Part shown: positions 824-24,443 of the stretch, one piece after another | Layout: every line of letters starts with the position of its first letter | How positions within the stretch are numbered: the first letter of the stretch is position 1 | NCBI GenBank assembly: GCA_964343835.1 | Contig: CAYFKR010000009.1 | Location: forward strand, 8,927 to 72,926 | DNA from: an uncultured Fibrobacteraceae bacterium | GTDB lineage: Bacteria > Krumholzibacteriota > Krumholzibacteriia > LZORAL124-64-63 | Reading direction: 5' to 3' | Length of the DNA stretch: 64,000 nucleotides | The notes under the pieces: model-generated | Told to the model about the DNA's origin: nothing | The model's input: the letters and a program-made list of their open reading frames with translations, nothing else | The model's database searches: none | Position numbers and translations under genes: made by a program

Positions 824-855
824 TCGTCGTTTCAGGGCTTCGGCATCCTCATGCA

Positions 856-871
856 GGGCAACGCGTTGCCC
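856..871 (+). promoter_or_regulatory. Perfect 16-bp palindrome GGGCAACGCGTTGCCC about 20 bp upstream of the fliP sigma-54 promoter
   Basis: Seen in sequence; candidate protein-binding site or hairpin. Confidence 0.3.
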
Positions 872-890
872 GCGTCCCCTCCGGCCACCG

Positions 891-906
891 TGGCACGACG
901 GTTGCG
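891..906 (+). promoter_or_regulatory. Candidate sigma-54 (-24/-12) promoter upstream of fliP: TGGCAC-gacgg-TTGCG
   Basis: Near-perfect match to TGGCAC-N5-TTGCW about 40 nt upstream of the fliP GTG start, inside the only long (185 nt) gap of the flagellar operon. Confidence 0.5.
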
Positions 907-947
907 AAGACCCCGGTCGAACCGACGACCCCGACCGGAGGCCATCC

Positions 948-1715
948 GTGCGCGCACGCCCGACCATCCTGCTGTTCCTCGTGCTGACGACCCTGCTGGC
1001 AGCGGCTCCCGCCGCGGCCCAGGAAGCGGCCACGGCCGGCGCCCCCACGACCATCAGCCTGTCCCTGGGAGATGCCGACGGCGCCGCCCGCATGGACGTG
1101 GCCGTCGAGATCGTCCTGCTGATGACCCTGCTCTCGCTGGCGCCGGCCCTGCTGGTGACCCTGACGAGCTTCACGCGGATCATCATCGTGCTGGGCTTCC
1201 TGCGGCAGGCCATGGGCACCCAGCAGATGCCCTCGAACCAGATCGTCATCGGTCTGGCCCTCTTCCTGACCTTCGTCATCATGAGCCCGACCATCAGCCG
1301 CGTGAACGCCGAGGCCGTGCAGCCCTACCTGGCCGAGGAGATCTCCCAGCAGGAGGCCTTCTCCCGGGCCCAGGCGCCCCTCAAGGAGTTCATGCTGACC
1401 CAGGTCCGCGAGAAGGACGTGGGGCTGTTCCTGGAGCTGACCAACCAGGAGGCCCCGGAACTGCCCGAGGACCTGCCCATGCTGGTGGTCGTGCCGAGCT
1501 TCGTGCTGGGCGAGCTCAAGATGGCCTTCCAGATCGGATTCGTGCTCTTCCTGCCGTTCCTGATCATCGACATGGTCGTGGCGTCGGTCCTGATGTCCAT
1601 GGGCATGATGATGCTCCCGCCCGTGCTGATCAGCCTGCCCTTCAAGGTGCTGCTCTTCGTGCTGGTGGACGGCTGGTACCTCGTCGTGCGCTCCCTGGTC
1701 AGCGCCTTCCAGTAA
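948..1715 (+). CDS. fliP: Flagellar export apparatus protein FliP
   Basis: Signal peptide plus conserved FliP core (IVLLMTLLSLAPALLV..FTRIIIVLGFLRQAMG..PSNQIVIGLALFLTFFIM); GTG start with GGAGG 7 nt upstream. Confidence 0.9.
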   Translation: MRARPTILLFLVLTTLLAAAPAAAQEAATAGAPTTISLSLGDADGAARMDVAVEIVLLMTLLSLAPALLVTLTSFTRIIIVLGFLRQAMGTQQMPSNQIVIGLALFLTFVIMSPTISRVNAEAVQPYLAEEISQQEAFSRAQAPLKEFMLTQVREKDVGLFLELTNQEAPELPEDLPMLVVVPSFVLGELKMAFQIGFVLFLPFLIIDMVVASVLMSMGMMMLPPVLISLPFKVLLFVLVDGWYLVVRSLVSAFQ

Positions 1716-1730
1716 CTCCGCGGAGGAATC

Positions 1731-1994
1731 ATGACCCCCGAGACCGTCATCGAACTGGGCCAGACGGCCATGAAGACCACCCTGATGGTGGCGGGCCCCA
1801 TGCTCGCGGCCGGCATGCTGGTGGGTCTGACCATCAGCATCTTCCAGGCGGCGACCCACATCAACGAGATGACCATGACCTTCGTGCCGAAGATCGTGGC
1901 CGTGTTCGTGACCCTGGTGCTGTCGCTGCCCTGGATCATCGGCCAGCTCACCCGTTTCACCCACGGGATCTTCGAGCGCATCGCGGAGATGTAA
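1731..1994 (+). CDS. fliQ: Flagellar export apparatus protein FliQ
   Basis: 87 aa, two TM helices, typical FliQ sequence (MTPETVIELGQTAMKTTLMVAGPMLAAGMLVGLTISIFQAATHINEMT). Confidence 0.9.
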   Translation: MTPETVIELGQTAMKTTLMVAGPMLAAGMLVGLTISIFQAATHINEMTMTFVPKIVAVFVTLVLSLPWIIGQLTRFTHGIFERIAEM

Positions 1995-2000
1995 CAGGCC

Positions 2001-2786
2001 GTGCCGACCACGTTCGACGTCACCATGCTGGTCGTGACGGTGCTGCTGACGCTGCGCCTGTCCATCCTCGCGGCGGTGCTGCCCCTGATCTCGGGCCGCA
2101 CCGTTCCGGTGATCTGGCGACTGGCGTTGTGCGCGGTGGTCGCGGTGGCGGCGGCCCCCCTGGCGGCGTCGGAACTGCCGCCCGGCCCCCTGGTCCTGAC
2201 GTGGGAGTCGCTGCTGGGCGAGGCGGCGCGGAGCCTCATGATCGGCGCCCTGATCGCCTTCGTGGTGGGCATCCCCTTCGCCGCCGTGCGGTTCGCCGGC
2301 CAGGTGATCGGCGTGCAGATCGGCTTCTCGATGGTCAACACCGTCGACCCCCAGAGCGGCATCCAGGCATCGGTGCTGGCCCAGCTGCACTACCTGCTGG
2401 CGGTGATGCTCTTCTTCGCCATGGACCTCCACCACCTGCTGATCCGGGTCATGCTGGAGACGGCGCGGGTGGCGCCGCTCTTCGGCGCCATCGACGGCCG
2501 CTCCGGGTCCTGGTTCCTGGTGGAAGGGTTCTCCGAGTTCTTCCAGATCGGATTCGTGATCGCGGCTCCGGTGATCATCGTGCTGCTGCTGATCAGCGCC
2601 TGCATGGGCTTCGTGGTCAAGACCGTCCCCCAGATCAACGTGCTGGTGGTGGGCTTCCCCATCAAGATCGCCGTGGGTCTGGCCATGGTCGGCGCCTCGA
2701 TGATGTTCTTCGGGCGCATCTTCACGGGACTGATGACCGACATGGAAACGCAGCTGATGGAGCTCCTGGCCGCCCTGCAGGCCTAG
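2001..2786 (+). CDS. fliR: Flagellar export apparatus protein FliR
   Basis: 261 aa polytopic membrane protein in the fliPQR-flhB position. Confidence 0.85.
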   Translation: MPTTFDVTMLVVTVLLTLRLSILAAVLPLISGRTVPVIWRLALCAVVAVAAAPLAASELPPGPLVLTWESLLGEAARSLMIGALIAFVVGIPFAAVRFAGQVIGVQIGFSMVNTVDPQSGIQASVLAQLHYLLAVMLFFAMDLHHLLIRVMLETARVAPLFGAIDGRSGSWFLVEGFSEFFQIGFVIAAPVIIVLLLISACMGFVVKTVPQINVLVVGFPIKIAVGLAMVGASMMFFGRIFTGLMTDMETQLMELLAALQA

Positions 2787-2840
2787 GAGCATGACCGACG
2801 GGGCCGAGGAGGCTCCTGACGAACGGGGGAGGTGAACGGC

Positions 2841-3902
2841 ATGGCGGACGGACCGGGCGGCGAGAGGACAGAGAAAGCCACAGGCAGACGGCGGGAAAAG
2901 GCCCTCGAGGAGGGGCAGGTCGCCCTGAGCCAGGAAGTCAACAGCACCATCGTGCTGCTGCTGGCGTTCTCGCTGCTGTTCGTCTTCGGCGGGTTCATGT
3001 CCCGGGTCCTCAACGAGAACGCCCACTATCTCTTCGGACAGGCCCACATCTTCCTGCTCGACGATCCCTACGCCCTGGTGGAGATCGCCTCGGCCAACTT
3101 CTCCATCATCCTGAAGGCCCTGGCGCCGGTCATGCTCGTGGTGCTGGTGGCGGGATTCGCCGCCAACGTGCTGCAGGTGGGCTGGCACGTGAACGTGCAG
3201 GCCCTGGCCTTCCGCTGGAGCAAGCTGAATCCGATCAACGGCGCCAAGCAGCTCGTGTCGAAGAAGGCGGCCTTCGAGCTCGTCAAGAACGTCCTCAAGA
3301 TCGCCGTGATCAGCGCCCTGGGCTGGATCACGGTGAAGGGCGTGCTGGCCGAGGTGGTCGGCACGTCGCTGCTGTCCCTGGAGGGCGCCATGTCGGTGGG
3401 CCGCTCGACCATGGCCAAGCTGGTCTACCGCATGGTGGCCCTGATGGCCGTGCTGGCGGCCATGGACTGGGCCTACACCAAGTGGCAGCACGAGGAGGAC
3501 CTGAAGATGACCAAGCAGGAGGTGAAGGAGGAGGCCAAGGACATGGAGGGTGATCCCCAGGTCAAGGCCAGGATCCGCTCCCTCCAGTTCGAGATGCTGC
3601 GCAAGCGCATGATGGGTGAGGTGCCCACCGCCGACGTCGTGGTGACCAACCCGACCCACTTCGCTGTGGCCCTGAAGTACGTGCCCGGCGACCCGGCGCC
3701 GAAGGTCGTGGCCAAGGGCGCCGACGAGATCGCGCGGAAGATCAAGGAGATCGCCCGGAACGCCCGTGTGCCGGTGATCGAGAACAAACCGCTGGCACGA
3801 GCCCTGCATAGGACCGTGGACGTGGGCGCGTTCATCCCGGACGAGCTCTACAAGGCCGTGGCCGAGCTGCTGGCCTACGTGTACCGCCTCAAGAGGGCCT
3901 GA
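2841..3902 (+). CDS. flhB: Flagellar export apparatus switch protein FlhB
   Basis: FlhB N-terminus (EKTEKATGRRREKALEEGQVALSQEVNS), NPTH autocleavage motif (VVVTNPTHFAVAL) and C-terminal domain; ATG 2841 chosen over the track start 2832 because of GGAGG at 2828-2832. Confidence 0.9.
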   Translation: MADGPGGERTEKATGRRREKALEEGQVALSQEVNSTIVLLLAFSLLFVFGGFMSRVLNENAHYLFGQAHIFLLDDPYALVEIASANFSIILKALAPVMLVVLVAGFAANVLQVGWHVNVQALAFRWSKLNPINGAKQLVSKKAAFELVKNVLKIAVISALGWITVKGVLAEVVGTSLLSLEGAMSVGRSTMAKLVYRMVALMAVLAAMDWAYTKWQHEEDLKMTKQEVKEEAKDMEGDPQVKARIRSLQFEMLRKRMMGEVPTADVVVTNPTHFAVALKYVPGDPAPKVVAKGADEIARKIKEIARNARVPVIENKPLARALHRTVDVGAFIPDELYKAVAELLAYVYRLKRA

Positions 3903-3917
3903 CGAAGGATCTGACGC

Positions 3918-6020
3918 TTGTCCGAGACCGCGAACATGGATCGGGACATGGTCCTGGCGAACAGCAACGTGCTGAGCGCCCTGGCCGTGGTCGCCGTGAT
4001 CGGTCTGATGATCATGCCGGTGGCGCCGCTGGCGCTGGACCTGCTGATCACGTTCAACATCGCGTTCGCGGTGGTCATCCTGCTCGTCGCCCTGTACCTG
4101 AAGGAACCCCTCCAGTTCTCCAGTTTCCCGTCCCTGCTGCTGATGGTGACCCTGTTCAGGCTCTCCCTGAACGTGGCGTCCACGCGCCTGATCCTGGGGG
4201 AGGCCCAGGCCGGCAAGGTGATCCAGAGCTTCGGCGACTTCGTGGTGGGCGGGAACTACGTCATCGGCGTGATCGTCTTCGCGATCCTGATGATCGTGCA
4301 GTTCGTGGTGATCACCAAGGGCTCGGGCCGCATCGCCGAGGTGGCGGCGCGGTTCACCCTGGACGCCATGCCCGGCAAGCAGATGGCCATCGACGCCGAT
4401 CTGGGTGCCGGCCTGATCACGGAGAAGGAGGCCCGCAAGCGCCGTCAGGACGTGAGTTCCGAGGCCGAGTTCTTCGGCGCCATGGACGGTGCCAGCAAGT
4501 TCGTGCGCGGCGACGCCATTGCCGGAATCGTGATCACCCTGATCAATATCGTTGCAGGGTTCGTGATCGGCATGCTGCAGCTGGACCTGTCGGCCGGCGA
4601 CTCCCTGCGCCGCTTCACCACCCTGACGGTGGGCGACGGCCTCGTGAGCCAGCTGCCCGCCCTGCTCATCTCCACGGCCGCCGGTATGGTGGTCACGCGT
4701 CAGAGCAGCGCCCTGAACCTGGGCCAGGCCCTGACCATGCAGCTGTTCCGCCAGAGCCGCGCGTCGGATCTGGCGAGCGCCGCCCTGATCGTGTTCGGCC
4801 TGATCCCCGGTCTGCCGACCATGCCCTTCCTGGTTCTCGGTGCTGGCTTCGGCGTGGCGGGCCGTCTGCTGAGCCGCAAGGTCAAGGCTGCCGAGGAGGC
4901 CGCCGAGGAAGCCGAGCGCATGGCCGAAGAGGCCGAGGCACCGCCCGAGCGCGAGGGCCAGGACCGCTTCATCACCGACGTGCTGGAACTGGAGCTGGGC
5001 TACGGCCTGCTGCCCCTGGTGGACGAGCGCCGCGGCGGCGACCTCCTGCAGCGCATCAGCAAGATCCGCCGGCAGGTGGGGCAGGAGCTGGGCGTGGTGG
5101 TGCACCCGGTCCGCGTGCGCGACAACCTGCAGCTCGACGCCAACCACTACGTGATCAAGCTCAAGGGCGTGGAGATCGCGCGTTCGGAACTCATGCCCAA
5201 CCGCCTGATGGCCATGAACGCCGCCGGGTCCGACGCCGAGTTCGGCGGCGTGGCCACGGTGGAGCCCGCCTTCAGGCTGCCCGCGCTCTGGATCGAGCCC
5301 GGCGTCAAGGCCGCCGCCGAGATGGAGGGCTTCACCGTCGTGGAGCCGTCCGCCGTGCTGACCACCCACCTCTCGGAGATCGTCCGCGCCCACGCCGACG
5401 AACTCCTGTCCCGCCAGGACGTGAAGGACCTGTGCGAGATCGTGCGCGAGTTCGCCCCCTCGCTCATCGAGGATCTGGTGCCGGACCGCGTGCCCGTGAA
5501 CGCCCTGCACAACGTGCTGCGCCTGCTGCTCCACGAACGCATCCCCGTCAAGGACATCGTCACCATCCTGGAGACCATGGCCAACCACAACGCCGCCACG
5601 GCGTCGGCCGACGCCCTGGTGGAGAAGGTGCGCGAGGCCCTGCGCCGGACCATCAGCTCCCTCTACGTGGAGCCCGACGGGAACATGCACGTGGTCTCCC
5701 TGCACCCCGACGTGGAACAGGTCCTGTACCGCGCCACCCGCGACAGCGACCAGGCCGGCGCGGTGGTCCTGGACCCCATGTTTGCCCAGTCGTTCCTCGA
5801 GCGCCTCGAGCGCGTGCTCCAGGCGGCCTACCGCCGCGGCACGCCGCCGTCGCTCCTGGTGCCGACGCCGATCCGCATGTTCGTCAAACGGCTCGTCGAA
5901 CCCACCTTCCCCAGCCTGGCCGTCGTCGGTTACACGGAGATCACGTCGCAGACGCAGATCCGATCCGCCGGCACGGTCGCGATGAAGGACGTGAACAATG
6001 AACTCTCAGCCTCAGCGTGA
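3918..6020 (+). CDS. flhA: Flagellar export apparatus protein FlhA
   Basis: 700 aa; N-terminal TM domain plus cytoplasmic FlhA-C domain; TTG start with GAAGGA RBS. Confidence 0.92.
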   Translation: MSETANMDRDMVLANSNVLSALAVVAVIGLMIMPVAPLALDLLITFNIAFAVVILLVALYLKEPLQFSSFPSLLLMVTLFRLSLNVASTRLILGEAQAGKVIQSFGDFVVGGNYVIGVIVFAILMIVQFVVITKGSGRIAEVAARFTLDAMPGKQMAIDADLGAGLITEKEARKRRQDVSSEAEFFGAMDGASKFVRGDAIAGIVITLINIVAGFVIGMLQLDLSAGDSLRRFTTLTVGDGLVSQLPALLISTAAGMVVTRQSSALNLGQALTMQLFRQSRASDLASAALIVFGLIPGLPTMPFLVLGAGFGVAGRLLSRKVKAAEEAAEEAERMAEEAEAPPEREGQDRFITDVLELELGYGLLPLVDERRGGDLLQRISKIRRQVGQELGVVVHPVRVRDNLQLDANHYVIKLKGVEIARSELMPNRLMAMNAAGSDAEFGGVATVEPAFRLPALWIEPGVKAAAEMEGFTVVEPSAVLTTHLSEIVRAHADELLSRQDVKDLCEIVREFAPSLIEDLVPDRVPVNALHNVLRLLLHERIPVKDIVTILETMANHNAATASADALVEKVREALRRTISSLYVEPDGNMHVVSLHPDVEQVLYRATRDSDQAGAVVLDPMFAQSFLERLERVLQAAYRRGTPPSLLVPTPIRMFVKRLVEPTFPSLAVVGYTEITSQTQIRSAGTVAMKDVNNELSASA

Positions 6021-7116
6021 TCTGCCCGTGGTGACGGTGCGGGGGAGGACGGCCCAGGAGGCCCTGTCCAACGTGAAGCGCCGCTACGGTCCCCAGGCCC
6101 AGATCCTGGAGAGTCGCGAGATGAGCGAACGCAGTCGCGACGACCTCGGCGAGCGCCGCTACGTGGAAGTCGACGTGGTGCTGAACGGCATGGGCGACGC
6201 GTCCGGCCCCGGCGGCGTGGCAGGCGCCCTGGCCGCCGAGGTGGCCCGCATCGAGTCCCTGGTTCGCGAGATCGAGAAGGGCGGTTCCGCGTCCGGCGCG
6301 GACGACGGCGACGCGACGCTGATGGCCGCCTACCCGCTTTCCGGCCACCTGCTGAGGGCGGGCGCCACCCGGCCCGCCGTGCGCCAGCTGGCCCGCATGT
6401 GGCAGGCGGACGGTGACGGCGGCGAGCCCCTCGAGCACCTGGCGGGCGTGTTCCGCGCCAGCGGCGGCGACTGGGAATCGTTCGGCGGCAGGCACCTGCT
6501 GCTCGGCCGTCCCGGTGCCGGCAAGACCTCGCTGATCCTCGGCGCCGCCGCCCGGCTGCGGTCCCTGGACCGCAAGGTGCTGGTGCTTTCCCTCGGCCGC
6601 GAGCGCAAGGGCGACATGCGCTGGCTCCAGGAGGAGGCGCGCGAGCACGGCTACGACGCCGCCGTCCTGCGCAAGGGTGCCCAGCTCGAGAAGGCGACCT
6701 CCCACTTCGGCGGGTACGACGCCGTGCTCATGGACGCCCCCGCCCTCGACGACCCCTTCCTGGCCGACACCACCGTGCGCCACCTGCTGGCCGACGACGA
6801 GCACACCCACCGCCACATGGTCGTGCCGGTGGACGCCGACCCCTCAGCCCTGAACGGCCTGTGGACCGAGTGCCGCCAGTGGAACTGCGACTGGATCGCC
6901 CTGAGCCGCGGCGACCTGGCGGCCCACAGCGGACGGCTCGCCGATCTGCTCCTGGCGGCGCCCTGCGCCGTCTCCCTGTCGTCGCGCGGGGCGTGGCCCG
7001 GTGCCGGGCCCCTGATCCCGTCGTCGCGACAGCTCGTGGGCTCGACGCTGGCCGGTGCGGCCACGCGGAAGCCGGGACGCACCCGCGGCCTCGCCGCGAA
7101 GGCCCTGGAGGTCTGA
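5998..7116 (+). CDS. flhF: FlhF-like SRP-type flagellar GTPase homolog with degenerate G-motifs
   Basis: N-terminal B-domain-like region (VKRRYGPQAQILESRE) and P-loop GRPGAGKTS, but the DTxR, DTAG and TKxD motifs are replaced (GRERKGD, DAPA, SRGD); overlaps the flhA 3' end by 23 nt. Confidence 0.6.
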   Translation: MNSQPQRDLPVVTVRGRTAQEALSNVKRRYGPQAQILESREMSERSRDDLGERRYVEVDVVLNGMGDASGPGGVAGALAAEVARIESLVREIEKGGSASGADDGDATLMAAYPLSGHLLRAGATRPAVRQLARMWQADGDGGEPLEHLAGVFRASGGDWESFGGRHLLLGRPGAGKTSLILGAAARLRSLDRKVLVLSLGRERKGDMRWLQEEAREHGYDAAVLRKGAQLEKATSHFGGYDAVLMDAPALDDPFLADTTVRHLLADDEHTHRHMVVPVDADPSALNGLWTECRQWNCDWIALSRGDLAAHSGRLADLLLAAPCAVSLSSRGAWPGAGPLIPSSRQLVGSTLAGAATRKPGRTRGLAAKALEV

Positions 7117-7119
7117 TCC

Positions 7120-7452
7120 GTGCAGCGCCTGGTCAATACGATGGCCCTGACCGCCGCCCTCGTCGCCGTGGGGATGGCCCTGCTGCGCGATTACGGCCTG
7201 CTGGTCACCCTGAAACGGGCCGCCATCGCCTACTTCGCCTTCTACGCCCTGGGGGCGGCCCTGGTCTTCGTCTTCAAGACGGGGATCGAGGAGGAATGGA
7301 TCCGCGACGCCCATCGCCGCAGGGCCATCGCCGACGCGAAGCGGAAGAAGGCCCAGATGGAAGCCGAGCGGCAGCACTACGCCTCCATGGAGGCGGAAGC
7401 GGCGGAAGTGGAAGCGGAGAAGGCTCAGCAGAAGGAAACAGCCGGCGTCTAG
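7120..7452 (+). CDS. Hypothetical small membrane protein (2 TM helices plus charged coiled-coil tail), in the position where flhG is normally found
   Basis: 110 aa, GTG start 4 nt after the flhF stop; no recognizable domain. Confidence 0.4.
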   Translation: MQRLVNTMALTAALVAVGMALLRDYGLLVTLKRAAIAYFAFYALGAALVFVFKTGIEEEWIRDAHRRRAIADAKRKKAQMEAERQHYASMEAEAAEVEAEKAQQKETAGV

Positions 7453-7476
7453 GGACGGCCGATGAACGGTAACGGG

Positions 7477-7492
7477 TGGCACGGAATCTGCA
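7477..7492 (+). promoter_or_regulatory. Candidate sigma-54 (-24/-12) promoter upstream of fliA: TGGCAC-ggaat-CTGCA
   Basis: GG and GC at canonical spacing, about 35 nt upstream of the fliA ATG (7527). Confidence 0.5.
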
Positions 7493-7526: not shown

Positions 7527-8483
7527 ATGCTCAAGACCGATACCCTCGCCCACAGGGAACTCTGGGACCAGCTGACCGCCGGCGACGGTGGCAAGGCCCG
7601 TCAGGACCTGGTCGAGATCTATGCGCGCGTGGTCAAGTACGTGGCCGGTCGCATGGCCATCGGCCTGCCCCACTACGTGGACCAGAACGACCTCGTCTCG
7701 GCGGGGCTGCTCGGCCTGATCCAGGCCATCGACAACTTCGATCCCGACCGCGGGATCAAGTTCGAGACCTACGCCATCCCGCGCATCCGCGGCGCCATCC
7801 TGGACGAGCTGCGCTCGCAGGACTGGTTCCCCCGTTCCCTGCGCCGCAAGGCGCGTCAGCTCGAGGAGGCCGTGACCGGCCTCGAGGCCCGGTTCGGACG
7901 CCCGGCCACCGACGAGGAGCTGGCCCGGGAGCTCGGCGTGAGCCGCGACGAGCTGGCGACGATGATCGAGGAGGTCTCCGTCGCCACCATCATCTCCCTG
8001 GACGCCGACAGCTCCAGCGACGGCGACGACTCCACCACCCTCGGCGAGTACCTGCCCGACCCCAAGGCGGAGGACGTGGAGGAGAAGGTGTCGTCCCAGG
8101 AGATGGTCAAGCTCATCGCGGGCGGCCTGGAGGAACTGCCCGAGAAGGAGCAGCTCGTCCTGGTGCTGTACTACTACGAGGACCTGACGCTGAAGGAGAT
8201 CGGCGCCATCCTCGACGTGACCGAATCGCGCGTCTGCCAGATCCACACCAAGGCCATCATGCGCCTGCGCGGCAAGCTGCACCAGACAGCCGGCAAGAAG
8301 AGCATCGGCCGGCTGACCAAGGAGATCCGCGACCGCCGTCGCAAGCAGGACGAGCTGGACGTGGTGGAGGCCAAGTCGCTCAACCTCATGGCCGGGCTCG
8401 CCGTGCCGCCGATGATCCGCCTGGCCGAGGTGCTGCTGGAGATGCGGGTCCCGTGGCTCGAGCTGGACCGCTGGATGGGGTAG
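7527..8483 (+). CDS. fliA: RNA polymerase sigma-28 factor FliA/WhiG family with a C-terminal ~65-aa extension
   Basis: Sigma-70 regions 2-4 (YVDQNDLVSAGLLGLIQAIDNFDPDRGIKFETYAIPRIRGAILDELR; LTLKEIGAILDVTESRVCQIHTKAIMRLR); ATG 7527 with GAGAAAGG RBS preferred over the upstream track start 7476. Confidence 0.85.
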   Translation: MLKTDTLAHRELWDQLTAGDGGKARQDLVEIYARVVKYVAGRMAIGLPHYVDQNDLVSAGLLGLIQAIDNFDPDRGIKFETYAIPRIRGAILDELRSQDWFPRSLRRKARQLEEAVTGLEARFGRPATDEELARELGVSRDELATMIEEVSVATIISLDADSSSDGDDSTTLGEYLPDPKAEDVEEKVSSQEMVKLIAGGLEELPEKEQLVLVLYYYEDLTLKEIGAILDVTESRVCQIHTKAIMRLRGKLHQTAGKKSIGRLTKEIRDRRRKQDELDVVEAKSLNLMAGLAVPPMIRLAEVLLEMRVPWLELDRWMG

Positions 8484-8492
8484 GAGAAGGCC

Positions 8493-8801
8493 ATGGCTAA
8501 CGGAGACGGATTCGCGGTCAAGACCACCATCGCCCAGATGGGCGCGGTGGCCAAGACCCAGCTGAAGTCCCAGCAGGCCCAGCCGGCCGGCGCGGAACAC
8601 GCCCGCAAGCCGGGGGAGAAGGAGAGCCGCGTCGAGAAGGTCCGCGAGGCCGAGGAGGCCCAGAAGACCAACGTGGACCCCGACCGCAGGCGCGACGGGA
8701 AGAAGGGGAGTGGCAAGGGCCGTGACGAGGACGACCCCGACCGCACCGAAGACGACCTGCACGACGACGACATCGGCCTGATGGTGGACATCAAGGCCTG
8801 A
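8493..8801 (+). CDS. Hypothetical acidic, low-complexity 102-aa protein; speculative FlgM-like anti-sigma-28 candidate
   Basis: Good AGGAGAAGG RBS, 9 nt after the fliA stop; no recognizable domain. Confidence 0.4.
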   Translation: MANGDGFAVKTTIAQMGAVAKTQLKSQQAQPAGAEHARKPGEKESRVEKVREAEEAQKTNVDPDRRRDGKKGSGKGRDEDDPDRTEDDLHDDDIGLMVDIKA

Positions 8802-8816
8802 TCCCGGAGGACGGAC

Positions 8817-9284
8817 ATGGACATCATCGGAGCCCTTCAGGACGGACAGGGAACCCTCGCGTGGGTCACCGCGGTGCTGCTGGCCCTGGGCGGCACGGCG
8901 GTGGTCGTGGCGGTCTGGCTGCAGCTCCGCCGCGGCGTGCCCGCCATGACCATCCTCAAGGCCGTGCTCGGCGTGAAGACAGGCGCGGCCCGCACCGAAG
9001 AAGGTCCCGAAGGCGCCAGGGGGACCGACGCCCCCGCCACCGCGCCTGCGGAAGCGAAGGATTCCCTCCGCGAGCCGGTGGAAGCCGCCCTGAACGCCTA
9101 CCGGGCCGCCGCGTCCGTGGCGGAGACGCCCGACACCGGGACCGAGGATGCCGTGCTCACCGAGCGTCAGCTGAACGTGTACCTCGCGCGCCTGCGCAGG
9201 GCCGGAGACGCCCTGGAGCAGCTGGCCGCACGGGATCGGTCCCGGTCCGGCGAGCGCGACACCGTCGGCGCCACCGTTTCCTGA
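8817..9284 (+). CDS. Hypothetical single-pass membrane protein
   Basis: 155 aa, GGAGG RBS, one TM helix (AWVTAVLLALGGTAVVVAVWL). Confidence 0.4.
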   Translation: MDIIGALQDGQGTLAWVTAVLLALGGTAVVVAVWLQLRRGVPAMTILKAVLGVKTGAARTEEGPEGARGTDAPATAPAEAKDSLREPVEAALNAYRAAASVAETPDTGTEDAVLTERQLNVYLARLRRAGDALEQLAARDRSRSGERDTVGATVS

Positions 9285-9383: not shown

Positions 9384-10895
9384 GTGGAGCGCAACCTGAT
9401 CGTCCTGCTCGGACGCAACCCCCAGCTTTACAAGATCTTGGCCGACTGGCGACTGCCGGATGCGGACCTCTACGTCCACGACCAGGCGTCGGAGGCCCTG
9501 GCGGCCCTCGCCGACGGCCAGGCCAGCCTGTTCCTCTTCGATACGAGCGGCTACGGGAATGCCGGGCATATCATCGAGACCTTCCAGTCCCTCAAGGGCG
9601 ACGCCGACCTCATCGTCCTGGGCGAGCCGGCGGTGCTGGCCGACCTCCAGGAGCAGCCGCGGCGGGGGCGGATCCGGCGTCTCGACCTGTCCGCCTCTCC
9701 CGACGAGCTGCGCACCATGGTCGACCGCCTGCTCCGCCTGCGCAGCGTGCGGTCCCGCAGCGGCATCGTGGGCCGATCGGCAGGCGTCCAGCAGATGATC
9801 GCCCTGATCGCCCAGGCGGCGCCCCTGGACGTGAACGTGCTGATCCAGGGGGAGAGCGGCACCGGCAAGGAGCTGGTGGCCAGGGCCATCCACGCCCACT
9901 CCTCCCGGGCCGACGCGCCGTTCCTGAGCGTGAACTGCGGCGCCCTGAGCGAAGGCGTCCTGGAGAGCGAGCTCTTCGGGCACGAGAAAGGCGCCTTCAC
10001 CGGCGCGGTCCAGAAGCACGACGGCCTGTTCCGCCGCGCCGACGGCGGGACCCTGTTCCTGGACGAGGTGGCGGAGATGCCCCTGGGCATGCAGACCCGC
10101 TTCCTGCGCGCCCTGGAGACGGGGGAGTTCACGCCCGTGGGCGGTACCGCCATCCAGCGCAGCGACACCCGCCTGGTGGCGGCCACGCACCGCGACCTTG
10201 CGGCCGAGGTGGAGCGCGGCCGGTTCCGCCAGGACCTCTACTATCGCCTGCGGGTGGTGGTGATCCCCACGCCGCCGCTCCGGGAACGCATCGAGGACGT
10301 GCCGGTCCTGGCCCAGACCTTCCTCGACCAGGAAAACGAGCGCCACGGCCTCGCGGTGCGCGGGCTGAGCAAGCCGGCCCTGCGCGTGCTCGAGCAGTAC
10401 GGCTGGCCCGGGAACATCCGCGAGCTCCGGAATGTTGTGAGTTCCCTCGTGGTGCTCAAGCAGTCGGGGATGGTGGAGGCCGACGACCTGCCGGGCGATA
10501 TCGTGGAGTCGGTGGCCCACACGGGCAGCTCCCCCAACGTGCCCGTTCCCTTCGGCCCCTCCGGCGACGACGCCCTGCAGCTGGAGATCCTGCTGCGGAC
10601 CCTGTGGGAACTGCGCAACGACGTGAAGGAGATCAAGGACCGCCTCGGCCTGACTGCGGAACCCGCCCGCCAGTGGACCGACGACCGGGGCCTGCGCGTG
10701 GTGGACACCTACGCCGGGGAGGCGGGATACTCCACCGAGCCCGTGAGCGACGGCGGGGATCTCCAGAGCGCCGAGCGGACCCTGATCGAGTCGGCCCTGC
10801 GGGCCACCGGCGGACGTCGCCGCCAGGCCGCCGAACGGCTCGGCATCTCGGAACGGACGCTATACCGGAAACTCAAGAAGTACGGGCTGTCCTGA
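9384..10895 (+). CDS. Sigma-54-dependent transcriptional activator (bacterial enhancer-binding protein, FleQ/FlrA-like)
   Basis: AAA+ sigma-54 interaction domain (GESGTGKE, GAFTGA, GTLFLDEV), C-terminal Fis-type HTH; receiver-like N-domain lacks the acidic pocket; GTG start with AGGAGG RBS. Confidence 0.85.
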   Translation: MERNLIVLLGRNPQLYKILADWRLPDADLYVHDQASEALAALADGQASLFLFDTSGYGNAGHIIETFQSLKGDADLIVLGEPAVLADLQEQPRRGRIRRLDLSASPDELRTMVDRLLRLRSVRSRSGIVGRSAGVQQMIALIAQAAPLDVNVLIQGESGTGKELVARAIHAHSSRADAPFLSVNCGALSEGVLESELFGHEKGAFTGAVQKHDGLFRRADGGTLFLDEVAEMPLGMQTRFLRALETGEFTPVGGTAIQRSDTRLVAATHRDLAAEVERGRFRQDLYYRLRVVVIPTPPLRERIEDVPVLAQTFLDQENERHGLAVRGLSKPALRVLEQYGWPGNIRELRNVVSSLVVLKQSGMVEADDLPGDIVESVAHTGSSPNVPVPFGPSGDDALQLEILLRTLWELRNDVKEIKDRLGLTAEPARQWTDDRGLRVVDTYAGEAGYSTEPVSDGGDLQSAERTLIESALRATGGRRRQAAERLGISERTLYRKLKKYGLS

Positions 10896-21751: not shown

Positions 21752-21758
21752 GGTGACG

Positions 21759-24443
21759 ATGCGCCGTCGCGGCGTGATCCGGAACCTGCGCGCGGCCGTC
21801 CTGATCGGGACGGCCGTGCTGTTGTGCGCCGGGTTGGCGGCGGCCGGGCTGTCGGAGAAGCGCGCGGCCCGCAGGGCGTCCCTCAAGACGGCCGCCCTCG
21901 CCGGCGAGGTCGCACCGTTCCGGATCCTGGTGGTGCCGGTGGACTTCGCCGACGCGCGGTTCCCCGACGACTGGGACGAGGCTCGTCTCTCCGCGCAGCT
22001 GGCCGGGCCGGGGGAGACCCTCGAGTCGTATTTCGACGCGGCGTCCCGCGGCCGTTGCGACGTGACCACGCTGCTGGCCCCCGTCGTCCACCTCGACGGC
22101 GATCGCCGGGCCTATTCCGACCTCGGCTACTTCGGCTACTTCCGGACCCGCGCCATGGCCCAGGAAGCCATGGAGGGCGCCGCGTCCACGATCCCCTTCC
22201 ATCTGGCCGACGGGGACGGCGACGGCGACGTGGACGGCGTGCTCATCCTCCATGCCGCCCCCGGCCTCGAGAACGACCACGAGGACGGCCTGATCGTTCC
22301 CCTCCAGTTCTGGACGGAAGAGCCGGTGCTGAGCAACGGCACGGCCGCCGATTTCTATGCGGTGGCCTCGGCACGATCGGGACTGGGCATCTGGGTGCAC
22401 GAGGCGGCCCACCTGCTGGGCCTGGACGACCGCTACCAGCTGGGGCTGGATCCGCCCGAGGGTGAACCCCTCGCGGGCGACGCTGGCTGGGGAGGCCTGG
22501 GACGCTTCAGCCTCATGGCCGCGGGGCACCTGGGCGGCGACGCGGGAGAGGGGCCGGCCCTGCTGGACGCCTACAGCGCCCTCCAGCTCGGCTGGGCCGA
22601 CGAGACCCTCCTCGACCCCGCCGACTCCGGAGACTTGACCCTCGCGCCGGGCGAGGTCCTGCGCTGGGACGTGCCCGGCACGGACGGCGCCGAGTCGTTC
22701 CTCCTGGAAACGAGGGGCGCGACGTCGTCCCACACCTTCGACGCGGGCATCCCCGCCGGCCGGCTGCTGGTCTACCATGTGGACCGCGACGTGCCCGACG
22801 ACGTGGTGCAGGACCACCTCCGTGTCCGCCTGGTGGAAGCCGACGGCGACGACGCCGTGGCCGACGGCCTGACCCTGGGCGTCGACGCCGACCTCTTCCC
22901 CCGCGACGGCGTGCGCCAGGACTGGACGCCCGAGACCACCCCCGGCACCGGCGGCTATGGCGCCCCCTCCGGTTTGGCTCTGGGTGCCATCCGCCCCGTC
23001 GAGGGCGGGGTGGCCTTCCACTGGGGGCTGGCCGACGGCGCGTGGTCCGTCGAGGCCTCCTTCGACGTGTCCGCCGCGGACACCCTGCTGGTGGTCCGGG
23101 CCCGCACGAGCGTGCACCCCGCCACGCTGTCCGCCGTCTGCACCGCCCTCGCCGGCGGCACGTTCGCCGACGGTCCGACGGTCCAGCGCGACCTGGAGTA
23201 TGGGGAAGGCGGCGTCTGGACGTTCGTCTCGCCGCCGGTGTGGCGTGCCGACCCCGCTGAGGAATCCCGCATCCGGCTCTCGTTCCTGGGCGACGACGTT
23301 CCGTCCGACATGACCGTCGTCCGCACCTGGACGGGGCTCGATCCCGATCCGGCCGTGACCGACTGGGCCTCCTGGACCCTGGGCGTGAACGAGGCCGCCG
23401 GCAGCTCATGGCGCCTCTGGGACCTGGACGGCCTGGTCCTGGCCTGCGTCGACGACGATTCCGCGCCCGCCGACTGGCCCGACGTGAGCTACGCCAACGG
23501 CACCGATGCCTGGATCGCCTCACCGGCCTTCACGGCGGACGACCGCGTCCTCGTCATGCTGCACCACGTGGACGTCCCGGAGGACGAACCGGGCTTCAGC
23601 GCCGACGGCTGCGCAGTCGAACTGGTGACGGCGGACGGCCTGGTGACTCCGGTCGCACCGGTCGACGGTTACGGGGGAGGCGTCCCCGGCTGGAGCGGCT
23701 CGTCCCTGCGCGGGCGACCCGCCTTCACGCGTCGTGGCGATCTGGACGACCTGGACCGGCCCGTCTGGCGCGTCGACGTGTTCGACCTGTCGCCCTGGGC
23801 CGGGACCGTGATCCGCCTGCGCCTGCGCCTGGCGGCCGACGCTCTCTGGCGTGGGCGCGGCTGGTACGTCCGGTCCCTGGAGTTCGCGGAGGAACGGCCC
23901 CGGACCGTGCCCGCCCGGACGGACGATGCCTGGACATGGGAGACGCCGTTCGCGGGAGTCACGTCGCAACTGCTCTCGCTCAGCGTGGACGGCGGCGGAA
24001 CCTGGGTCCCGGCAGGATCCCCGACCGCGACCACCTGGCCTGCTGCCTCGTTGCAGACCGTTCTGCGCGACCTGGACGCCACCGCCGGCCTGCTGCGGAT
24101 CCGCTGCCTGGCGGACCCGGGTGCGGTGGACCTGGGGCCCGTCGCATTCCGACGGGATGAAGCTCTGGACTTGGGGGCGAACCTCGGACGCCCGTGGCCG
24201 AACCCCGCCGTTGACGAGGTACGCATCCCGATCTCCGTGCCCGACGGCGTCGCCGACGCCGTGCTCAGCATCCACGACCTGCGGGGACGGACGGTCCGGA
24301 AGTGGCGACCGGGCCCCGGCGGACGCATCGTGTCCTGGGACGGACGGGACGACAGGGAACGTCGCCTGCCCGCCGGACGTTACCTCGTGCGCCTCGAGAC
24401 CGGCGCACACCACTCGACCAGGAGCCTGACCCTGCTGCCATGA
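21759..24443 (+). CDS. Secreted zinc metalloprotease (M6/InhA-like, HEXXH) with T9SS/FlgD-Ig-like C-terminal sorting domain
   Basis: Signal peptide, HEAAH motif (VHEAAHLLGLDDRY), C-terminal ~80 aa similar to the T9SS C-terminal secretion domain (WPNPAVDEVRI...LSIHDLRGRTVRKW...WDGRD...AGRYLVRLETG). Confidence 0.6.
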   Translation: MRRRGVIRNLRAAVLIGTAVLLCAGLAAAGLSEKRAARRASLKTAALAGEVAPFRILVVPVDFADARFPDDWDEARLSAQLAGPGETLESYFDAASRGRCDVTTLLAPVVHLDGDRRAYSDLGYFGYFRTRAMAQEAMEGAASTIPFHLADGDGDGDVDGVLILHAAPGLENDHEDGLIVPLQFWTEEPVLSNGTAADFYAVASARSGLGIWVHEAAHLLGLDDRYQLGLDPPEGEPLAGDAGWGGLGRFSLMAAGHLGGDAGEGPALLDAYSALQLGWADETLLDPADSGDLTLAPGEVLRWDVPGTDGAESFLLETRGATSSHTFDAGIPAGRLLVYHVDRDVPDDVVQDHLRVRLVEADGDDAVADGLTLGVDADLFPRDGVRQDWTPETTPGTGGYGAPSGLALGAIRPVEGGVAFHWGLADGAWSVEASFDVSAADTLLVVRARTSVHPATLSAVCTALAGGTFADGPTVQRDLEYGEGGVWTFVSPPVWRADPAEESRIRLSFLGDDVPSDMTVVRTWTGLDPDPAVTDWASWTLGVNEAAGSSWRLWDLDGLVLACVDDDSAPADWPDVSYANGTDAWIASPAFTADDRVLVMLHHVDVPEDEPGFSADGCAVELVTADGLVTPVAPVDGYGGGVPGWSGSSLRGRPAFTRRGDLDDLDRPVWRVDVFDLSPWAGTVIRLRLRLAADALWRGRGWYVRSLEFAEERPRTVPARTDDAWTWETPFAGVTSQLLSLSVDGGGTWVPAGSPTATTWPAASLQTVLRDLDATAGLLRIRCLADPGAVDLGPVAFRRDEALDLGANLGRPWPNPAVDEVRIPISVPDGVADAVLSIHDLRGRTVRKWRPGPGGRIVSWDGRDDRERRLPAGRYLVRLETGAHHSTRSLTLLP

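Follow-up and report, generated by a model that had tools for sequence, protein, structure and literature searches.

Why would a flagellar sigma factor continue for some 65 amino acids (aa) behind its last conserved region, and what could such an addition do? The question is raised by the fliA gene in the stretch of DNA analysed here, 64,000 nt (the window) of contig CAYFKR010000009.1 from an uncultured Fibrobacteraceae bacterium (GCA_964343835.1), in which the sigma-28 factor FliA is encoded within a flagellar gene cluster. A sequence-only reading of this locus had pointed out the C-terminal extension and had proposed that the fused module acts as an autoinhibitory, an anti-sigma-like or a membrane- or partner-docking element. 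Our analysis demonstrates that the tail is a genuine, translated part of FliA, that its two modules are under purifying selection and that it is restricted to a clade. Its properties suggest, without proving it, that late flagellar genes are controlled by holding sigma-28 at the membrane.

FliA and its C-terminal tail

The fliA open reading frame (ORF) extends on the + strand from the ATG at 7527 to the TAG at 8481-8483 and encodes a protein of 318 aa. The N-termini of the homologues (M..T.QIAH..LW) favour the ATG at 7527 over an upstream GTG at 7476. The protein is divided into a sigma core and a tail of three parts:

7527..8279, + strand: fliA core with sigma-28 regions 2, 3 and 4 (residues 1-251; Pfam r2/r3/r4, TIGR02479 at 271 bits, Foldseek)
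8280..8339, + strand: tail module A (residues 252-271), a conserved basic amphipathic helix, HQTAGKKSIGRLTKEIRDRR (G256 invariant, helix predicted by AlphaFold)
8340..8378, + strand: tail linker (residues 272-284), an unconserved charged spacer (family alignment)
8379..8483, + strand: tail module B (residues 285-318 and the stop codon), a hydrophobic C-terminal segment, LNLMAGLAVPPMIRLAEVLLEMRVPWLELDRWMG, putative membrane anchor (hydropathy, conservation)

Apart from its length, the protein belongs to the FliA/WhiG family by every feature tested. Pfam assigns Sigma70_r2 to residues 28-100 (4e-19), r3 to residues 108-186 (4e-9) and r4 to residues 201-248 (8e-24), the NCBIfam model TIGR02479 (FliA_WhiG; cutoff 189.6 bits) aligns to residues 28-251 at 271 bits, and the top Foldseek matches of the predicted structure are RpsD, WhiG (6PFV) and sigma-28/FlgM (1RP3, 9WSF), with a probability of 1.0 and 36-43% identity. 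The identical protein is also present on an independent ENA contig, and public annotation describes the tailed proteins plainly as 'FliA/WhiG family sigma factor'.

Beyond the end of the TIGR02479 model FliA continues in frame for 64-67 residues, which bears out the extension of about 65 aa that had been described before; compared with tail-less relatives, in which 7-15 aa follow the R-L-R of region 4.2, the true excess amounts to about 55-63 aa. In this window with an overall GC content of 70%, the three codon positions of the tail have GC contents of 0.72/0.39/0.98 and those of the core 0.69/0.38/0.95, and the other two frames across the tail contain stops or do not display such a pattern. 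Since the tail matches the core in this respect, it must be translated in the fliA frame and cannot be explained by a frameshift or read-through artefact.

The distribution of the tail was followed in two sets of relatives. The first comprises the 120 best matches among 5.8 billion protein clusters (60-84% identity, 303-342 aa), and all 120 of them carry the tail; they stem from metagenome-assembled genomes (MAGs), and the named ones are labelled Krumholzibacteria, Krumholzibacteriia or just 'bacterium'. In the second set, a GTDB scan with one genome per species from which the 80 best FliA loci were kept, 10 species loci (62-70% identity) bear tails of 63-78 aa, with one locus among them (L009) reading to 127 aa; their labels are Krumholzibacteriia or, dubiously, Fibrobacteraceae or Gemmatimonadales. 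The remaining loci, about 70 in number (44-53% identity), stop 7-15 residues behind this R-L-R. These tail-less proteins originate from Spirochaetota, Acidimicrobiia, Zixibacteria, KSB1, Hydrogenedentes, Ignavibacteriales and others. As the next-closest FliA proteins lack the tail and the solved sigma-28 and WhiG chains comprise 220-254 aa, the tail is a clade-specific addition, and the FliA of the window reads as a complete sigma-28 to which this addition has been joined. Thus, the two objections that the sequence-only reading had raised against itself both fail: a sequencing or frameshift artefact is ruled out by the codon-position GC content together with the 120 homologues, and a common trait of the FliA family is ruled out by the next-best FliA proteins of other phyla, which have no tail.

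Two observations on these relatives should be mentioned separately. In the Krumholzibacteria MAG L009 (6001-7131) the FliA ORF overruns region 4.2 by 127 aa, and no ORF corresponds to a separate 'GDGVS' gene downstream; the over-long reading frame is probably a frameshift or assembly error. Moreover, MAGs labelled Fibrobacter, Fibrobacteraceae or Gemmatimonadales (L004-L006, L011) carry a tailed FliA, and their nearest relatives are labelled Krumholzibacteriia; the taxonomy labels of the MAGs with tailed FliA are probably inconsistent.

Anatomy of the tail

Conservation within the tail is concentrated in its two modules. Module A follows the consensus EGKxSIGRLTxEIRxxR with 27% K/R and a mean pairwise identity of 52%. 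Its residue G256, which is invariant (120/120), marks the point where the last helix of region 4.2 gives way to the helix of the tail; besides, S259, I260, G261, L263, T264 and I267 are strongly conserved. In the copy of the window, module A reaches a hydrophobic moment of up to 0.78. The linker varies across the family from 8 to 27 aa, with 14.5% pairwise identity, 22% D/E and 10% Pro, and with this variable length and low identity it behaves as a spacer.

Module B is an apolar stretch of 20-25 aa with the consensus VNVMAGLAL...P, in which N286, A289 and P309 are conserved. It contains 63% apolar residues, 2.6% K/R and 2.6% D/E, and includes the helix-destabilising residues N286 and G290 as well as P294/P295 in about half of the members. 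The motif of module B also appears in a protein of 210 aa (P0131), as four repeats of 'QVNIMAGLALC' in a Cys/Arg-rich context; this protein looks like a mis-translated repetitive DNA element.

An AlphaFold2 prediction based on 103 homologues yielded a sigma core of high confidence and a tail that is helical throughout, with predicted local distance difference test scores (pLDDT) of 61-68 for the helix at residues 254-281 and of about 85 for the helix at residues 287-305. None of the Pfam domains, FlgM (PF04316) included, matches residues 252-318 at E<=0.01. A profile built from 56 tails recovered 13 matches among 1.84 billion representatives, nearly all of them C-terminal fragments of FliA or chimeric calls, and this search detected neither a stand-alone homologue nor another fusion partner of the tail.

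Membrane tethering as the favoured proposal

Of the roles proposed for the tail, docking to a membrane or a partner is the one our data favour, so that the earlier interpretation as a whole is partly supported. The most hydrophobic window of 19 aa in the whole protein coincides with module B in 119 of the 120 homologues and is followed by 0-15 residues. The Kyte-Doolittle mean of this segment ranges from 1.2 to 2.4 in the family (>=1.6 in 80/120) and is 1.37 in the copy of the window. The free energy (dG) by the Wimley-White octanol scale is below zero in 118/120 tails, with a median of -4.5 kcal/mol, versus 3/120 sigma cores; for the tail of the window it is -0.41 kcal/mol. Within the first 20 aa of module B, 60 of the 120 proteins have no charge at all and 108 have at most one.

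Positively charged residues are found on the N-terminal side of this segment only: the 12 aa that precede it contain on average 2.1 K+R, as against 0.34 behind it, an asymmetry that fits the positive-inside rule with an N-in/C-out orientation. Furthermore, FliA has no hydrophobic segment near its N-terminus. The family therefore displays what is expected of tail anchors, namely a lone apolar segment at the C-terminus with <=15 residues behind it, where up to about 30 would be acceptable, and positive charge on its N side. A C-terminal sorting signal (LPXTG, PEP-CTERM, GlyGly-CTERM) was also considered and rejected, as there is no N-terminal hydrophobic segment or signal peptide and the basic residues stand before and not after the apolar segment. 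In E. coli, insertion as a tail anchor has been shown for C-terminal segments whose grand average of hydropathy (GRAVY) is as low as 1.04-1.57, and natural tail anchors, including that of the flagellar regulator Flk, span GRAVY values of 1.03-2.83 (PMC6794478). The Kyte-Doolittle values of module B, 1.2-2.4 in the family and 1.37 in the window, lie inside the range of 1.04-2.83 that inserts in E. coli (PMC6794478). While the family median is clearly high enough for insertion, the copy of the window is marginal, although still within 1.04-1.57. Taken together, module B has the composition, the position and the charge asymmetry of a tail-anchored N-in/C-out membrane protein. The spacer-like linker, the confidence of module B irrespective of the sigma domains, the conserved membrane proteins encoded next to fliA, the absence of flhG from its usual place and the precedents of membrane-bound sigma factors point the same way. 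We would give membrane tethering of sigma-28 about an even chance of being the primary role of the tail.

Several points weigh against this assignment. The support for a membrane anchor consists of hydropathy statistics, and by these the module B of the window is among the weakest of the family (Kyte-Doolittle 1.37, octanol dG -0.41 kcal/mol, two charges in the segment): it is composed of 13 apolar residues, a Pro-Pro and an amphipathic helix (moment 0.52) containing R298, E301, E305 and R307. This particular copy may lie in the membrane interface instead of spanning the bilayer. The VNxMAG...P motif is also more specific than a generic anchor requires and could mark a protein-protein interface. 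In addition, a tethered sigma factor would require a release mechanism or membrane-located DNA. Finally, a fold-back of the tail onto the sigma domains, which is weighed below, was judged by proxy, from the pLDDT of the tail with versus without these domains.

Genes around fliA and possible docking to a partner

The surroundings of fliA are themselves conserved and offer several candidates that the tail might bind:

5998..7116, + strand: divergent FlhF-like P-loop protein, 372 aa (sub-threshold TIGR03499)
7120..7452, + strand: small membrane protein with two hydrophobic helices (MQRLVN...LKR..AY.AFF), at the usual flhG site (directly 5' of fliA in the related loci examined)
8493..8801, + strand: highly charged protein of 102 aa (M.GDGVSL.TTIAQ.G.VAKTQ.KGQQ ... 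G.LID..A; 11 orthologues aligned)
8817..9284, + strand: protein of 155 aa, N-terminal hydrophobic helix followed by RR, C-terminal ARLR..A..LE helix (three orthologues aligned)

The window and all related contigs examined share one gene order, namely fliPQR, flhB, flhA, the divergent FlhF-like gene, the gene of the two-helix membrane protein, the tailed fliA, a gene for the charged protein of about 105 aa, one for a single-helix protein of about 150 aa, (HDOD proteins) and a sigma-54 activator. On one long-read contig (L085) flhA is fragmented and no fliA was called. The FlhF-like protein reaches 46 bits with TIGR03499 (FlhF) against a cutoff of 174, keeps the P-loop GRPGAGKTS and has orthologues without a Pfam hit on record. 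The two-helix membrane protein has no Pfam or NCBIfam match. A Walker A motif of the MinD/FlhG type (GKGGxGK[ST]) occurs within 3 kb upstream of fliA in 0/12 tail-bearing versus 52/61 tail-less loci, and thus flhG is gone from its usual place in the tail-bearing loci (L002-L013, L084).

Downstream of fliA, the gene of the 102-aa protein starts 9 nt past the stop codon, with a ribosome-binding site that overlaps this codon, and is probably co-translated with fliA; the synteny of both genes is the same in L084. The protein has the N-terminal consensus GDGVSLPTTIAQMGxVAKTQAKGQQ and the C-terminal consensus GxLIDxRA, and its family of 288 database members (104-124 aa), none of which has a Pfam domain, is confined to similar MAGs. 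FlgM was tried as an identity for this protein and rejected: a profile search against PDB sequences returned chance matches only (E>1), and a comparison of 11 members with Pfam at E<=10 gave nothing relevant. The 102-aa protein is nevertheless a candidate partner or anti-sigma analogue. The gene for the 155-aa protein is located two genes after fliA at every related locus examined.

These neighbours give rise to the alternative that the tail binds the two-helix, the 102-aa or the 155-aa protein, or else the FlhA/FlhB export gate, and that this partner is the real anti-sigma or checkpoint factor. The strictly conserved gene order in all related loci examined, the restriction of the 288-member downstream family to the same kind of MAGs and the conserved Asn and small residues of the VNxMAG motif, which would suit helix-helix packing, are consistent with such a partnership. 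Besides, the position directly after the sigma factor gene is the usual place of anti-sigma genes in systems with extracytoplasmic function (ECF) sigma factors (PMC7826278). However, the interaction is putative, and no neighbour resembles FlgM or a known anti-sigma domain. Docking to a partner also overlaps with the membrane-anchor model rather than competing with it exclusively, and taken together we consider it unlikely.

Autoinhibition, degradation and artefact as rival readings

The tail might also act within FliA itself, if module B, with or without module A, covered the RNA-polymerase-binding surfaces of sigma-2/sigma-4 in the manner of a built-in FlgM; the self-regulating C-terminal extensions of the ECF41 and ECF42 sigma factors would be the analogue. 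That ECF factors are regulated by C-terminal extensions is well documented (PMC8999054, PMC7826278). In the subclade of the window, module A (moment 0.78) is strongly and the latter half of module B (0.52) moderately amphipathic, and the conservation of the motif exceeds plain hydrophobicity. The full-length model is also closer to the compact anti-sigma-bound forms than to the holoenzyme form, superposing on WhiG-RsiG at 10 Å, on sigma-28/FlgM at 11.6-15 Å and on holoenzyme-bound sigma-28 at about 21 Å. However, AlphaFold commonly yields compact models of sigma factors, which would arise anyway, and we therefore give this superposition little weight.

More informative is the comparison with a prediction of the tail alone from the alignment of 56 tails. 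Module B has pLDDT values of 85/79 with and 87/83 without the sigma domains, while module A even rises to 81-82 when the tail is predicted alone. As the confidence of module B is the same without the sigma domains, it does not stem from packing against them, and the autoinhibitory fold-back proposed by the sequence-only reading found no support in this AlphaFold check. The composition of module B argues in the same direction, because a uniformly apolar segment of 19-25 aa without charge and with a moment of 0.04-0.25, as present in most family members, is atypical of a soluble docking helix. The related proposal of an anti-sigma-like, FlgM-like module fared no better, as the tail has neither similarity to FlgM, with no Pfam FlgM match, nor stand-alone relatives among the 1.84 billion representatives. 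Thus, we regard intramolecular autoinhibition as doubtful. Module A, which is basic and directly follows the -35-recognition helix, could instead contact upstream DNA or acidic lipids.

Even less probable is that the apolar C-terminus serves as a degron, with a protease such as FtsH, Lon or ClpXP depleting sigma-28 as long as it lacks protection. Several AAA+ proteases recognise apolar C-terminal tails, and in enterobacteria Lon is known to degrade FliA, which lends the idea some plausibility. However, a tail of 65 residues, in which a spacer links two independently conserved modules, far exceeds what a degron needs, and the final residues (among them WMG, PLRT, GPPA, WPGLSI), on which degrons depend, are unconserved, so that we consider a degradation tag very improbable. 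The chance that the true stop lies earlier, or that a small downstream ORF was fused to fliA, is negligible: the abnormal extension of 127 aa in L009 shows that such errors arise in MAGs, but the codon-position signature shared by tail and core, the same architecture in 120 independent clusters and 10 GTDB species and the lack of a stand-alone tail homologue among the 1.84 billion representatives speak against it.

Comparison with known systems

Like canonical sigma-28 factors (FliA/SigD/WhiG; PDB 1RP3, 6PFV, 6PMI), the FliA of the window has regions 2, 3 and 4 with an above-threshold TIGR02479 match, and its gene follows flhA and an flhF-like gene within a flagellar cluster. Unlike these proteins, which end 7-15 residues after region 4.2, it adds a three-part tail of about 65 aa, and unlike canonical loci the window lacks flhG at its usual position directly ahead of fliA, and a search of the surroundings revealed no FlgM. 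With FlgM the tail may share the job of holding sigma-28 inactive until the basal body is complete, and both are largely helical or disordered. In contrast to FlgM, which is a separate and exported protein, the tail is covalently attached and apolar and shows no sequence similarity. Literature searches for a tailed or membrane-bound FliA or sigma-28 with a fused module retrieved no report.

Membrane-bound sigma factors are established in other groups, since IutY and ECF52 are freed from the membrane by proteolysis (PMC8999054). The putative C-terminal anchor of the window FliA is comparable to the C-terminal transmembrane segment of IutY/ECF243, SCO4117/ECF52 and the ECF48/53 hybrids (PMC8999054). 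In contrast, these ECF hybrids are group-4 sigma factors with extensions of up to ~400 aa that include zinc-finger anti-sigma and periplasmic sensor domains, whereas the window FliA is a group-3 factor with region 3, its tail has no anti-sigma domain, and the <=15 residues past the apolar segment leave no sensor domain. A further parallel outside the ECF group is provided by Pro-sigmaK and Pro-sigmaE of Bacillus subtilis, which are inactive and membrane-associated via a short terminal peptide until the intramembrane or membrane proteases SpoIVFB and SpoIIGA activate them at a morphogenetic checkpoint (PMC11486902, PMC6242693). Their pro-sequence, however, is N-terminal and comprises ~20-27 aa, and the addition in the window FliA is C-terminal and comprises ~65 aa.

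Regarding the architecture of the anchor itself, the tail resembles the tail anchors of Flk, DjlC and ElaB, with one apolar helix at the extreme C-terminus, a basic N side and a hydrophobicity within the range that inserts in E. coli; Flk is a tail-anchored flagellar checkpoint regulator (PMC6794478). The window tail, a putative anchor, shares no sequence similarity with these proteins. To our knowledge, there is no known tail-anchored protein with a sigma-factor domain. The window FliA, whose tail most resembles the ECF hybrids, the pro-sigma factors and the tail anchors, belongs to none of these three groups.

Probable sigma-54 control of fliA, and other genes of the window

Two further features of the window relate to sigma-54:

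7477..7492, + strand: sigma-54-type promoter, TGGCACGGAATCTGCA, about 35 nt 5' of the fliA start (motif and conservation)
9384..10895, + strand: sigma-54 enhancer-binding protein (Pfam Sigma54_activat 5e-68, AAA_lid_14, HTH_8; also present in related loci)

The motif TGGCAY-N6-TGCA occurs at two sites in the 64 kb (expected 0.16), one upstream of fliA at 7477-7492 and one upstream of flhA at 3793-3808 (+), both of them within the flagellar cluster. The site of fliA is conserved 50-70 nt upstream in 11/13 related loci, and the other two contain near-variants. The product of 9384..10895 is likely the activator of the sigma-54 promoters of the cluster. A sigma-28-type promoter, TAAA-N15-GCCGATAA, was not found in the 64-kb window, which is also devoid of late flagellar genes, and no FlgM is present in the window.

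The remaining genes of the window have housekeeping functions: ComEC, PurH, GuaA, SecA, TopA, a XerC/D-like recombinase, PyrB, DapA, UvrC, ScpB and S1. An antisense ORF of 1618 aa (849-5705, -) runs across fliR, flhB and flhA; with a GC content of 0.94 at the first and 0.67 at the third codon position it is a shadow ORF of the high-GC genes on the + strand and not a gene. Unrelated to the flagellar cluster, a protein of 896 aa is encoded at 21753-24443 (+), whose only Pfam match is a C-terminal FlgD_ig-like domain (25.4 bits versus a cutoff of 27), which may be a domain of the secretion/sorting type.

Proposed mechanism and implications

If membrane tethering is the role of the tail, FliA would insert into the cytoplasmic membrane or take a seat on its surface via module B, and sigma-28 would be held there probably beside the flagellar export apparatus, the genes of which precede fliA. 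Such tethering would sequester sigma-28 from the core RNA polymerase or confine it near the export apparatus. For the control of its activity there, two options can be envisaged. The first is release by proteolysis in the linker or within the membrane. Substrates of site-2 proteases require helix-destabilising residues, and speculatively N286, G290 and P294/P295 of module B resemble these. In the second option, the activity would be gated by the three small clade-specific proteins whose genes flank fliA, through binding to them.

The interplay of sigma-28 with its secreted antagonist FlgM is a textbook case of a morphogenetic checkpoint in gene regulation. In this context, we tentatively consider, as a possibility of rather low probability, that Krumholzibacteria-type bacteria have replaced the secreted-FlgM checkpoint by a tail-anchored sigma-28 at the export gate, which is released through cleavage in the linker or inside the membrane, or unmasked by the small clade-specific proteins of the neighbouring genes, only once the basal body is finished. 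If true, late transcription would be coupled to flagellar assembly in a new manner, and FliA would be the first tail-anchored sigma factor outside the ECF group. A tail-anchored sigma-28 that is conserved across a candidate phylum would come as a surprise to specialists in flagellar regulation. Membrane-bound sigma factors released by a cue would then extend from the ECF hybrids and the pro-sigma factors of sporulation to the group-3 flagellar sigma factors, and the tail would constitute a compact and portable module of ~65 aa for the membrane sequestration of transcription factors. For the organisms themselves it would mean that a whole candidate phylum runs its flagellar hierarchy differently, with a sigma-54 promoter for fliA, no flhG in its usual place and three lineage-specific small genes around fliA.

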